This document shows, piece by piece, positions 2,247 through 15,407 of a stretch of 47,560 nucleotides of DNA. The stretch is from a virus (lineage: Duplodnaviria > Heunggongvirae > Uroviricota > Caudoviricetes). Numbering within the stretch: position 1 is the first letter of the stretch; each line of letters begins with the position of its first letter. The notes beneath the pieces were generated by a model, which saw nothing but the letters and a program-made list of their open reading frames with translations, did not search any database and was not told the origin of the DNA. The stretch lies in IMG/VR virus record IMGVR_UViG_2630968533_000001. One strand, given 5' to 3'. A program made the translations under genes and the position numbers.

Positions 2247-3416
2247 TTATGGTCTGCTCTTCTGTGCCAGCTTATCAGCACATGTTTTTATCAGATCCTG
2301 TAGTGTCCTGGCTGGCAGGTTTGCATCCAGTACGCTGAGTATGCTGTTGTGATCTGCTTGGTCGACTACTTTGCCTGTCGGTGGTAGTAGCTTGAGCTGA
2401 GGATTCAGGTTTTCGTCAAAGCTGATAAGTGCTCTGGCGTTTCTGAGCAGATCAAGAAGTAAGGCTGATATCACATTTTCCTGAGTCATTGCTGACAGAT
2501 TTAGCGCCGCTTTGGTTTTCCCTGTTGCCTTGTCAAACTCCTTGATTAGTTCCTTCCTGTAGTTCGGTTCCGTTAATAGCCGATTATGCTCTGTTGCCGC
2601 GCGGATAATCGTTTTTTCCTGGTACAGTCGTTTAGCCAGATCACGCTCGTACTGTGTTTTTAACACGCTGCTGATAGCGTTAAAGGCTTCAATGTAGGCC
2701 AGCTTGATATCTTTCACGCCTGGACCGTCGATACTTTCCATGAGCAAGGTAAATCCGTCTTTTGTCATGCGATAGATTGTTATTTCGCGGTCGCTTCCTT
2801 CCAGCGGTCGTTGCTCTTTAAAGAAATGACGTGCCGCAGCTGTGCGAGGAATGCGTAACGCATCGATGGCCATAACGATGGAATTGTTTGTGGTGCTGAA
2901 TGCCTGGGCAACATCGGCTGAGGTTGTGAGTGGCTCGTTGTTGCACACCTTAATGTAAAACATCGGTTTGGCGTTGAGCGTATCGACAACCTCACGAGCA
3001 TTGTTTGGCGAGACGGTTACGGTCGCGGCCGTTTGTGTGTTCTGGCTGAAATAGCAGTCTTCCAGCCGTTCGAACACATCCCAAGCCTGATCGGTTTCAA
3101 GCATTTTGGCGTGACGTGCAGCCCCGCGTTCTGTCCAGAGAATGAGGGAGCGGGCTTTCGGGGAAATTTGTAACCCTCTTAAAGATGGTTGCACATTTTG
3201 TGAGTGACTTAAAGTCACTCGCAAAGTTTTTAACTCATCGCCAGCCACTTTGAAAAAATGCTTTCCTTCAATAAAGCGGTTTGCGTTACGTGAGTAATTT
3301 TTTTTGATGTTATCAACGTCTGTGCCGTATAGCTTTGCCAGTAGTTCAGTAGTGATAACGGGGATCTGGTTATGCAGGATAGGCTGTAGGGTGTTAACGG
3401 TCGGAAGCGTTTTCAT
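2247..3416 (-). CDS. Phage antirepressor (N-terminal ORF6N-like and Rha-like domains)
   Basis: ORF track; N-terminal motif ITTELLAKLYGTDVDNIKKNYSRNANRFIEGKHFFKV typical of ORF6N antirepressors; central PLTTSADVAQAF segment Rha-like; start overlaps the stop of the upstream small ORF (ATGA). Confidence 0.65.
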   Translation of the reverse strand: MKTLPTVNTLQPILHNQIPVITTELLAKLYGTDVDNIKKNYSRNANRFIEGKHFFKVAGDELKTLRVTLSHSQNVQPSLRGLQISPKARSLILWTERGAARHAKMLETDQAWDVFERLEDCYFSQNTQTAATVTVSPNNAREVVDTLNAKPMFYIKVCNNEPLTTSADVAQAFSTTNNSIVMAIDALRIPRTAAARHFFKEQRPLEGSDREITIYRMTKDGFTLLMESIDGPGVKDIKLAYIEAFNAISSVLKTQYERDLAKRLYQEKTIIRAATEHNRLLTEPNYRKELIKEFDKATGKTKAALNLSAMTQENVISALLLDLLRNARALISFDENLNPQLKLLPPTGKVVDQADHNSILSVLDANLPARTLQDLIKTCADKLAQKSRP

Positions 3417-3604
3417 TTTGCACCTCCCATAACTACTTTGGTTACGAGGGAGATTTTTGCGTCAGAAACAGCGTTATCGTTGCTGGCGATGCGCATAGCT
3501 TCGCGCTCGATGATTTCAGCCAGGCGGAATTTATCGGCGTATGAGGCTTTCTTGAGAAGGATCTTTACGAGGTTGACGTAATAGTCATGGGGTAGGTTTG
3601 TCAT
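3413..3604 (-). CDS. Small protein (63 aa) translationally coupled to the antirepressor (icd-like position)
   Basis: ORF track; 4-nt overlap with the antirepressor start; SD-like AAGGGA upstream on the minus strand. Confidence 0.45.
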   Translation of the reverse strand: MTNLPHDYYVNLVKILLKKASYADKFRLAEIIEREAMRIASNDNAVSDAKISLVTKVVMGGAK

Positions 3605-3769
3605 TGTGATGATTCCCTTAAAGGTTAAGGATACTCACCACCGTCAGGTTCCAATCATTGGGTGGTGAGACGTGCAGGGTTGGAACTACCGGACACAATG
3701 ACGAACCGGCGAGTCTTACGACTCCCCCGCACGCCCCACCATAATTTGGGTGTAGCAGTGCTTTACGCA

Positions 3770-3869
3770 TAAAAAAACCGCTAACGCGGTATGCGCCATT
3801 GTGTCTACGGGGTTCCAATCCCGACCGTAGATTTTGCTACGGCTCGGAAAGTGTCCACCAATGGCGCAT
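3770..3869 (-). ncRNA. Candidate structured small RNA / leader element (c4-like hypothesis)
   Basis: On the minus strand an 11-bp terminal stem (3791-3801 with 3859-3869) encloses an inner hairpin ctacgg/ccgtag, followed by hairpin accgc-gtta-gcggt and a U7 run (3770-3790); loop sequence has a near-complement at about 3680-3695 in the downstream leader. Confidence 0.25.
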
Positions 3870-4360
3870 TCATGTCAATACGGCGGGATTTTAACAGAGA
3901 CAACCACATAGCGTGGGTTTATTGGTAGGCAGAAACAAAAAAACCGCCCTATTGAGGACGGTTCTTTCGTGCTGATCGGATTCGCGGTCCTTTCAGCATA
4001 ACGTCGTTGTATAAACAACCACGCAAGCACAAGCAGCAAGTTAATTTTACCCAAAAGGTAATAATAGTCCACTATTATGCTTCAAAAAATTGTGGTTCTT
4101 GTTGTGCCTGCAAACTCACAGATTGTGGGTAGGTTACTGATTTTGTGAAAATAAACGAGTTTTTTCGTTTAATTTCTTTCCTATTACTAATCTTAAAATA
4201 ATCGTAAAATACCTGTGGACCTTCCCGCCGATTCGCACCCGGGCACCGACTTTAGGGGAGGATTCTCCGTTGCCGTACATGCAAGCACAAGCAGCCGTGC
4301 TTGCTCTCGCGTTGTTTTCGTCGGTGGGGATGCCGTGAAACGGCCTGTAAGGGCCATACA

Positions 4361-4483
4361 ATGAAAAAATACTGTATGTGTATTTTTATCGTTGTTACTG
4401 GGGCTTTGTTTACGCCACATGGGGAGGGTTGGAAGATTACTGATAACGCTCTGAATGTGACGATAAACATTAGCAGCAAGTAG
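4361..4483 (+). CDS. Small hydrophobic ORF (40 aa, MKKYCMCIFIVVTGALF...), speculative
   Basis: In-frame ATG within ORF 4301-4483; hydrophobic N-terminus; followed by a strong terminator; no SD seen. Confidence 0.2.
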   Translation: MKKYCMCIFIVVTGALFTPHGEGWKITDNALNVTINISSK

Positions 4484-4487
4484 CGAT

Positions 4488-4512
4488 TAGGCCCCTTCGG
4501 GGGCCTTTTTTA
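4488..4512 (+). terminator. Rho-independent terminator (AGGCCCC-TTCG-GGGGCCT then T-run)
   Basis: Perfect GC-rich hairpin followed by TTTTTTAT. Confidence 0.55.
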
Positions 4513-4548
4513 TGGTTGAATTTAAACGCTGGAGGCCGTCACCTTCTC

Positions 4549-15331: not shown

Positions 15332-15407
15332 GGCCCCTTAGCTCAGTGGTTAGAGCAGGCGACTCATAATCGCACGGTCATCGGTTCAAATCCGGTAGGG
15401 GCCACCA
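15332..15407 (+). tRNA. tRNA with CAT anticodon (tRNA-Met or lysidine-type tRNA-Ile2-like)
   Basis: Cloverleaf read by hand: acceptor GGCCCCT/AGGGGCC, D-arm GCTC/GAGC, anticodon loop CTCATAA (CAT at 15365-15367), T-arm ATCGG-TTCAAAT-CCGGT, encoded CCA; G1-C72 paired so not an initiator; 5' half resembles E. coli ileX as recalled. Confidence 0.85.

Follow-up and report, generated by a model that had tools for sequence, protein, structure and literature searches.

An apparently non-coding interval (positions 3900-4512) of a tailed-phage sequence of 47,560 nucleotides (Caudoviricetes; IMG/VR record IMGVR_UViG_2630968533_000001; this whole stretch of DNA is referred to below as the window) raises the question of what it encodes. 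An earlier note had drawn attention to a 15-bp direct repeat, hairpins and a small hydrophobic open reading frame (ORF) in this interval, and had ventured that it might be a small RNA (sRNA) or type I toxin-antitoxin (TA) locus. We propose that the plus-strand segment 4215-4511 and a divergently transcribed sRNA, TimR, together form a complete timPR-family type I TA module, in identity as well as in regulatory mechanism, and put the probability of this sequence-based reading at roughly 85%. The locus adds a diverged, mobile representative to a family already known (timPR/ryfA), without introducing a new type of system or mechanism; the identity of its two genes, their pairing site and the helices of the translational switch were established from sequence, a covariance model and covariation.

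A predicted full-length timP messenger and its peptide

Scanning of the whole window with Rfam identified a plus-strand match to ryfA (RF00126) at 4215-4511 (141.8 bits against a gathering threshold of 80; E = 1.7e-36) that covers model positions 1-296 of 296 and is thus full length. Relatives of the locus were gathered from E. coli plasmids, Yersinia phages, IMG/VR contigs and Logan assemblies (designated by L numbers where they need to be told apart); four of them (L009, L019, L021 and L022) scored 134-167 bits with the same model, and the chromosomal E. coli copy 315 bits. The RNA spanning 4215-4511 folds with a z score of -4.0. ryfA is the mRNA of TimP, a 38-amino acid toxic inner-membrane protein, rather than a non-coding RNA (PMC7667032). 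The Salmonella timP ORF occupies positions +145 to +261 of this mRNA, and its repressor, TimR, is an sRNA encoded upstream on the opposite strand with 18 nt of complementarity at its 5' end and a terminator (PMC7667032). The earlier guess of an sRNA or type I TA locus thus found its counterpart in a full-length ryfA match, an ORF at the position of timP and a minus-strand gene of the TimR type.

The hydrophobic ORF singled out by the earlier note proved to be this timP ORF: it consists of 40 codons located at +147 to +269 of the predicted mRNA, compared with a start at +145 in Salmonella. The encoded peptide begins with MKK followed by 14 hydrophobic residues, and its C-terminal half is polar; residues 4-17 have a mean Kyte-Doolittle hydropathy of 2.36 and the remaining ones -0.53, close to the 2.34 and -0.68 of E. 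coli TimP. It aligned with the NCBIfam family toxic_TimP (NF040796) over positions 1-40 of 40 (E = 7.1e-5, 23 bits), and a Pfam search of the peptide returned no match. Throughout 12 aligned homologues the ORF is intact in every lineage, with 39-41 codons, pairwise ratios of non-synonymous to synonymous substitution rates (dN/dS) of 0.06-0.99 and conservative substitutions. The other ORFs of the interval are, as had been stated, overlapping and of low quality, and had no match in Pfam or PHROGs. The alternative of a degraded gene found no support, in that the ORFs of 3875-4483 yielded no family when compared with the same two collections; the only match, a 14-bit resemblance to thioredoxin, was dismissed as meaningless.

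The -10-like hexamer upstream of timP lies at an equal distance from position 1 of the Rfam model in all lineages, that of chromosomal E. coli included. At the other end of the gene, a terminator scan recovered the strong plus-strand terminator that had been placed at 4488-4512 (4489-4506 plus T-run), and the helix of this terminator is 100% paired in the 12 aligned mRNAs, with four compensatory pairs. A further promoter-like site at 4335-4362 on the plus strand was judged spurious, as it falls inside the 5' untranslated region (5'UTR) and is not needed by the model.

The direct repeat and the predicted TimR antitoxin

What had been noticed as a direct repeat is itself the sRNA-mRNA pairing site. 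The 15-mer GCAAGCACAAGCAGC occurs in the window as exact copies at 4023-4037 and 4281-4295 only; with up to two mismatches allowed there are three matches where 0.16 are expected, and no shuffle reached three, such that the repeat is both exact and beyond chance. Its true length is 18 nt (4020-4037 and 4278-4295, 17/18 identical), and the lone mismatch corresponds to a G.U pair once one of the copies is taken as antisense RNA. Since one copy of the repeat lies in a predicted minus-strand sRNA, this sRNA is complementary to the plus-strand mRNA that holds the other: 4037-4020 of the minus strand and 4278-4295 of the plus strand form an uninterrupted 18-bp helix with one G.U. The equivalent TimR/timP helix in chromosomal E. 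coli comprises 20 bp at -83 to -64 from the AUG, and the TimR site of L019 lies at -82 to -66. We note that RNAduplex applied to the whole region produced meaningless end-to-end duplexes, for which reason a search for the longest contiguous helix and duplexes restricted to the sites were used.

The predicted TimR folds with a z score of -4.9 and leaves its 5' end unpaired. The terminator-like minus-strand hairpin which the earlier note had placed near 3935-3965 was recovered in the fold as 3970-3935 followed by a U-run; like the hairpin in the middle of the sRNA, it is conserved with compensatory changes (alignment A4). A simple terminator scanner did not list it. Owing to an A-tract upstream of the hairpin, plus-strand transcripts could end there as well. 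A promoter scan identified a sigma-70-like promoter for TimR whose predicted start (~4037-4041) falls where the complementarity begins. The same arrangement of -35 and -10 elements is found in divergent relatives, and the complementarity starts 6-8 nt past the -10 element in every lineage. The body of TimR is homologous to the chromosomal TimR region of E. coli (blastn). Rfam contains no family matching the minus-strand sRNA; the best match, to RNAI (26 bits against a gathering threshold of 47), was rejected as a generic resemblance to a hairpin followed by a terminator.

Matched changes at the two pairing sites

The loop of the second stem-loop (SL2) of the timP mRNA, which is the variable part of the pairing site, takes six forms, that of chromosomal E. 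coli included: AAGCAGC in the window and in strains such as AR_0067; AAACAGC in ATCC 25922 and vB_YpM_39; AAGCGG(C/U) in pHN68 and JE86; UAACCUG in L019 and L021; AAGUAAGC in L022; and CCCACAGUG in chromosomal E. coli. In each of these six haplotypes the TimR gene bears the matching change. When duplex energies were predicted for a 7x7 matrix of combinations, no row or column held a duplex more stable than that of the cognate pair, and chromosomal TimR is predicted to pair with the timP mRNA of the window with only -18.8 and -23.9 kcal/mol, compared with -35.9 kcal/mol for the cognate sRNA. The matching changes were taken directly from the paired site sequences; a MAFFT alignment of the concatenated site pairs (A3) had indels out of register and was not used for pair counting.

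A conserved translational switch

In the homologous systems studied experimentally, the Shine-Dalgarno (SD) sequence of timP is trapped in SL4, and translation requires a 7-bp pseudoknot between SL1 and SL3 together with a helix between sites 2 and 4, likewise required for translation, that opens SL4; binding of TimR to SL2 disrupts the pseudoknot (PMC11228461, PMC13000454). The elements corresponding to this switch in the window are listed in Table 1. The hairpin attributed by the earlier note to the second repeat copy is one of them: this copy pairs with GTGCTTGC and supplies the loop and the 5' arm of the resulting hairpin, which is present both in the minimum free energy fold and in the Rfam consensus structure (4281-4288 with 4297-4304).

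To count pairs, 12 timP mRNAs (nine mobile, three chromosomal) were aligned, and partners slid along the alignment served as control. Overall, 95.6% of the cells are paired, against 39-48% with slid partners. The pseudoknot helix is 100% paired, and at two of its seven pairs both partners differ between mobile and chromosomal lineages. SL4 is also 100% paired and includes one compensatory pair (CG in six sequences, UA in the other six), and all cells of the site 2-site 4 helix are paired in the 12 sequences, as opposed to 30-54% in the slid controls.

TimP toxicity, membrane targeting and the mechanism of translational control are carried over from experiments on the Salmonella homologue, and by analogy with it, the system would operate as follows. 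The 5'UTR of timP would adopt four stem-loops with the SD sequence hidden in SL4, and translation would need both the pseudoknot 4244-4250/4320-4326 and the helix 4272-4276/4340-4344 that opens SL4. TimR would bind SL2 through its first 18 nt (at 4278-4295, in the loop and 5' arm), thereby destabilizing SL2 and the pseudoknot and blocking translation, as it does in Salmonella. When made, the 40-amino acid TimP-like peptide would, by homology, insert in the inner membrane and render it leaky.

Table 1. Features of the timPR locus and of the module to its left (window coordinates)
Feature	Position	Strand	Remarks
timP (ryfA) toxin mRNA	4215-4511	+	~297 nt; from Rfam RF00126 and fold
timP -10 box	4205-4210	+	TAAAAT; predicted start ~4215-4218
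SL1	4221-4260	+	lower stem 4221-4226/4255-4260, upper stem 4228-4230/4240-4242; from Rfam structure and pair counts
Site 1 (pseudoknot)	4244-4250	+	CACCGAC; in SL1
Site 2	4272-4276	+	GCCGU; complementary to site 4
TimR target (repeat copy 2)	4278-4295	+	inside SL2, -83 to -66 from AUG
SL2	4278-4304	+	4281-4288 pairs with 4297-4304; loop 4289-4296
SL3	4307-4338	+	carries site 3
Site 3 (pseudoknot)	4320-4326	+	GUCGGUG; 7 Watson-Crick pairs with site 1
Site 4	4340-4344	+	ACGGC; pairs with site 2, would free SD
SL4	4342-4346 with 4351-4355	+	sequesters SD AAGGG (4349-4353)
timP ORF	4361-4483	+	40 codons; hydrophobic, signal-like N-terminus; peptide MKKYCMCIFIVVTGALFTPHGEGWKITDNALNVTINISSK
timP intrinsic terminator	4489-4512	+	7-bp GC stem, UUCG loop, U-run
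Hypervariable spacer between the divergent genes	4072-4204		at least 3 unrelated types
TimR promoter	4071-4044	-	-35 TGGACT (4071-4066), 16-nt spacer, -10 TAAAAT (4049-4044)
Predicted TimR sRNA	~4041 to 3932	-	~105-110 nt; free 5' end, middle hairpin, terminator
TimR 5' antisense segment (repeat copy 1)	4020-4037	-	5'-GCUGCUUGUGCUUGCGUG-3'
TimR middle hairpin	3997-3971	-	conserved, compensatory changes
TimR intrinsic terminator	3970-3932	-	GC-rich hairpin 3970-3935, then U7
isrK	3843-3771	-	RF01394
C4 antisense RNA	3746-3658	-	RF01695
63-amino acid ORF	3604-3413	-	phrog_7886
ORF6N+Rha antirepressor-like gene	3416-2247	-	in immI-like module

Relation to known systems

The closest counterparts of the locus are the chromosomal timP/TimR pairs of Salmonella, E. 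coli and Shigella (ryfA/STnc2070, RyfA1/RyfB1; PMC7667032, PMC11228461, PMC13000454). Both are recognized by the same covariance model and have an mRNA of ~300 nt with a 38-41-codon ORF at the same offset whose product starts with a signal-like hydrophobic N-terminus. They further share a divergent upstream sRNA with a homologous TimR body, the 5' end of which is directed against SL2 some 65-83 nt before the AUG and which then ends in a terminator, as well as the SD sequence in SL4, the 7-bp SL1-SL3 pseudoknot and the site 2-site 4 helix. The differences are in setting and detail. Chromosomal timPR typically lies between sseA and sseB, whereas the present copy lies between an isrK/C4/antirepressor module and parA. 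The mRNA of the window shares only ~67-68% identity with chromosomal E. coli timP in its first 200 nt; the 'address' formed by the SL2 loop and the TimR 5' end differs from that of the chromosome, with predicted cross-duplexes of -19 to -24 kcal/mol against -36 kcal/mol for the cognate pair; the 5' end of TimR and the start of timP are ~175 bp apart here, with hypervariable sequence in between, compared with ~75-80 bp in E. coli; and the register of the chromosomal site 1-site 2 'OFF-lock' is not clearly conserved.

hok/sok (parB of plasmid R1) is likewise a membrane-toxin mRNA under the control of a labile antisense RNA on an extrachromosomal replicon, and the killing of plasmid-free segregants for which it is known is the role that we propose below for timPR. 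The analogy is one of function only, as there is no sequence or structural relationship between the two. Sok overlaps hok/mok in cis, activation involves 3' processing and coupling to mok, and RNase III cleaves the duplex, whereas timPR combines a trans-encoded, divergent sRNA with an unprocessed mRNA that bears a structural switch (PMC11228461). Post-segregational killing is established for hok/sok; for timPR it is a proposal by analogy. The hok/sok models of Rfam had no match in the window, and the window sRNA does not overlap the mRNA.

Addiction modules of other phage-plasmids offer a second comparison, that of P1, phd/doc, being a type II system. The tad-ata module of N15 is reported to be type II as well. 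As in the window, these are TA cassettes carried by a plasmid prophage near maintenance functions; they rely on protein-protein interactions (type II), whereas the window system is controlled by RNA (type I). Finally, tisB/istR-1, shoB/ohsC, zorO/orzO and dinQ/agrB of E. coli also consist of adjacent, divergent toxin and sRNA genes, and in systems of the tisB/istR-1 type a short complementarity appears, as here, as a direct repeat in the DNA and acts far upstream of the ribosome-binding site. Their toxins and RNAs are unrelated to those of timPR, and their mRNAs depend on 5' processing or on standby sites, neither of which is needed by timP (PMC7667032).

The phage-plasmid carrier and distribution of the module

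The window is a circular ~47.5-kb phage-plasmid (plasmid prophage) of the myovirus type, encoding large terminase, portal, major head, tail sheath and tape-measure proteins. Immediately to the right of timPR are genes for a ParA ATPase and an 82-amino acid partner. To its left, a module resembling the P1 immI anti-immunity region occupies 2247-3843 on the minus strand (Table 1); TimR is transcribed toward this module, from which it is separated solely by its own terminator. Further features of the window include a tRNA-Met (CAT) gene at 15332-15407 on the plus strand and a stretch at ~1500-2240, flanked by a small helix-turn-helix gene (1165-1425) and the antirepressor-like gene, in which only overlapping low-quality ORFs on both strands are found and no Rfam match reaches the gathering score.

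Among PLSDB plasmids, timPR was found in 59, the par locus in 60 and the terminase in 59, near-equal counts that make timPR a core feature of this phage-plasmid family. In 5426 complete E. coli genomes the mobile timPR was present in 71, and 72 of its 73 places were on plasmids. The near-identical elements are circular, non-mobilizable plasmids of ~47-50 kb whose hosts include E. coli and Klebsiella; for E. fergusonii and E. albertii, the plasmid matches were to the adjacent par locus. Near-identical, too, are the infectious Yersinia phages vB_YpM_39, 41 and 44. The phage-plasmid type table of PMC12977533 contains no type matching the element in both size and morphology.

Chromosomal timP, for its part, was present in 5425 of the 5426 E. 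coli genomes and was annotated at every chromosomal match listed. The annotated records listed for the mobile lineage, that of the ATCC 25922 plasmid included, have no RNA or peptide annotation under the match, and annotation pipelines probably miss the peptide because its NF040796 score is under the curated cutoff. A 27-mer specific to the mobile lineage had no match in the contigs of species-representative genomes. A looser SL1 pattern retrieved from the same contigs only chromosomal copies (Escherichia, Shigella, Salmonella, Citrobacter, Kluyvera, Pseudocitrobacter and Superficieibacter), plus chance GC-rich matches, and neither scan revealed a chromosomal source of the mobile lineage. The literature searched contains no mention that we could find of a plasmid- or phage-borne timPR/ryfA, which is not proof that none was ever reported.

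Variability around the cassette

The spacer between the two genes (4042-4214; columns ~155-340 of alignment A1) holds both divergent promoters and is of at least three unrelated types, between TimR and timP flanks that are 93-100% identical (A1). In the window it includes an 11-bp tandem duplication (4188-4198/4199-4209; repeat family D5) that doubles the TAAAAT -10 box. The spacer also contains, at 4147-4176 on the plus strand and thus before the timP promoter, an inverted repeat of 12 nt (GAAAATAAACGA / TCGTTTAATTTC) with a T-rich run behind it; this element could be an operator or a weak insulating terminator.

Both sides of the cassette vary as well. Around 4512-4548 (junction ~4534), just past the timP terminator, the window lacks 177 bp that are present in L001 (3686-3861) and in both Yersinia phages fetched; match spans of ~895 bp in the other plasmids listed suggest that the segment occurs there too. 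It is flanked by a short direct repeat, CGCTGGAG, suggestive of a deletion by short-repeat recombination in the window, and in the relatives an unannotated ORF of the minus strand (MSEQQYTRLLKTRLTDLKRLQAGRLF...), located downstream of the par operon, begins within the segment. On the other side, between isrK and the TimR terminator, L005-L009 (e.g. L006, 953-1525) carry an extra plus-strand helix-turn-helix gene of ~540-573 bp which the window lacks; ATCC 25922 and the Yersinia phages are among the carriers.

In L019 (2078-2652) and L021 (2800-3366), timPR is located on the opposite side of the Rha/C4/isrK module, and in L019 it adjoins an IS91-family transposase. The position of timPR on the other side of the module in these divergent relatives indicates that the cassette moves within the accessory region. 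Salmonella Weltevreden plasmid 3 (L023), a related phage-plasmid whose par locus is 80% identical, had no ryfA match; a RelE/ParE type II TA pair is found there (156-802), ~2.7 kb upstream of par, which suggests that TA cassettes are exchanged in this region. In E. coli PS200 (L010, 181-420), a second TimR-like gene and a truncated timP 5' end precede the intact pair. This arrangement is that of K-12-like chromosomes, where Rfam calls part of the region IS128 (RF00125); the distal TimR-like copy is predicted to pair with the intact timP at -35.8 kcal/mol, compared with -30.5 kcal/mol for the adjacent TimR.

Possible roles of the module

The role that we favor as the most likely, albeit tentatively, is stabilization of the plasmid prophage by post-segregational killing. 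It is suggested by the adjacency of timPR to par, its near-universal retention in the family and the finding that in Salmonella TimR is less stable than the timP mRNA (PMC7667032). Upon plasmid loss, the labile TimR would decay ahead of the timP mRNA, resulting in the killing of the segregant. Given that mismatches in the TimR/timP helix abolish rescue in Salmonella (PMC7667032) and that the duplexes predicted with chromosomal TimR are weaker, the phage-plasmid system is probably insulated from the host copy.

A number of points weigh against the assignment to timPR and the role built on it. The peptide scores 23 bits with NF040796, below the curated cutoff of 45 and far from the 86.8 bits of chromosomal E. 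coli TimP, and the mobile peptides are only 22-39% identical to chromosomal TimPs (Escherichia, Salmonella, Citrobacter, Kluyvera, Pseudocitrobacter and Superficieibacter). This identity is comparable to the spread among most of these genera themselves (35-49%; one pair, 71%). The -35 element of timP is poor, and the transcription starts of both TimR and timP are predictions from sequence alone. Pairing of site 1 with site 2 locks the inactive conformation of the known switch (PMC13000454), and in the register used by E. coli, this pairing is interrupted at its center by an A.C mismatch in every mobile copy; the inactive conformation may therefore differ from that of Salmonella. An alternative 4-bp register (GGCA with UGCC) exists in the mobile copies. 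As to the role, deletion of chromosomal timR, and hence de-repression of timP, caused no growth defect in Salmonella (PMC7667032), and TimP at native level may be too weak to kill plasmid-free segregants.

The same module might serve defence or exclusion instead, with TimP being set free once an incoming phage stops host or prophage transcription (abortive infection) or in the presence of a competing element; this is the main alternative role, although we regard it as unlikely. hok/sok and similar type I systems exclude T4 (cited in PMC13000454), and timPR resides in a variable cargo slot between immunity (isrK/C4/ant) and par functions, its position relative to ant differing in L019 and L021. 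The relative that lacks a ryfA match has a RelE/ParE type II TA pair near this slot, and the hypervariable promoter spacer fits fast-evolving accessory loci. P22 infection, however, was unaffected by timPR deletions in Salmonella (PMC7667032), and adjacency to parA and presence in nearly every family member fit maintenance at least as well.

It is improbable that the ~300-nt RNA is mainly a regulatory sRNA (RyfA) acting on host stress, biofilm or virulence genes with the peptide being secondary, although a dual function is possible. RyfA of uropathogenic and avian pathogenic E. coli has been described as an sRNA with effects on stress resistance and virulence, and as a ligand of ProQ (PMC8205139, PMC10664665, PMC13188913), and the present RNA is highly structured (z = -4.0). 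Yet the ORF has stayed intact at 39-41 codons in sequences that differ at ~20-30% of their nucleotides, and most dN/dS values are well under 1; the elements that are conserved (pseudoknot, SD sequestration, site 2-site 4 helix) are those of translational control; and the dependence of TimP toxicity on its start codon in Salmonella (PMC7667032) argues against placing the sRNA first.

Less credible still is a decaying, non-functional passenger copy of the chromosomal locus whose repeats and hairpins would be leftovers. The Rfam score (142 against 315 bits on the chromosome), the NCBIfam score below cutoff, the lack of annotation in every record and the imperfect site 1-site 2 register are compatible with decay; the coordinated changes at both pairing sites in six haplotypes, the compensatory changes in the pseudoknot, SL4, terminator and TimR hairpin, the ORF intact everywhere, the promoters conserved at the right distances and the retention of the locus in ~59 of 60 PLSDB family members speak against it. 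Chance occurrence of the repeat and hairpins in AT-rich intergenic DNA, for which only the general frequency of short repeats could be adduced (several other short repeats in the window are probably of this kind), is refuted by three matches against 0.16 in shuffles, the Rfam E value of 1.7e-36 and the co-variation of the sites.

Significance

The timPR family was already known, and the earlier note missed both this fact and the nature of the direct repeat as a pairing site. What is new here is the phage-plasmid context, the re-addressed pairing site with its natural allelic series and the gap in annotation, the TimP cutoff of NCBIfam missing the mobile lineage. Chromosomal timPR of Salmonella displayed no growth, persister, biofilm or P22 phenotype, and its role was explicitly left open (PMC7667032). 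The phage-plasmid copy, situated beside partition genes, provides a setting in which function may be assayed through plasmid loss, exclusion and cross-talk with the chromosomal system, and with the natural series of matched TimR/timP alleles, evolution supplies an independent test of the model of pairing and pseudoknot formation developed in Salmonella. It is conceivable, though we hold it as doubtful, that a mobile timPR lineage was recruited by myovirus phage-plasmids of Escherichia, Klebsiella and Yersinia as an addiction or defence cassette, and that the address formed by the SL2 loop and the TimR 5' end was re-tuned such that chromosomal TimR cannot neutralize it. If so, these elements would be the first natural setting to give TimP toxicity a clear selectable function, and the address variants would constitute incompatibility or exclusion groups among co-circulating phage-plasmids.

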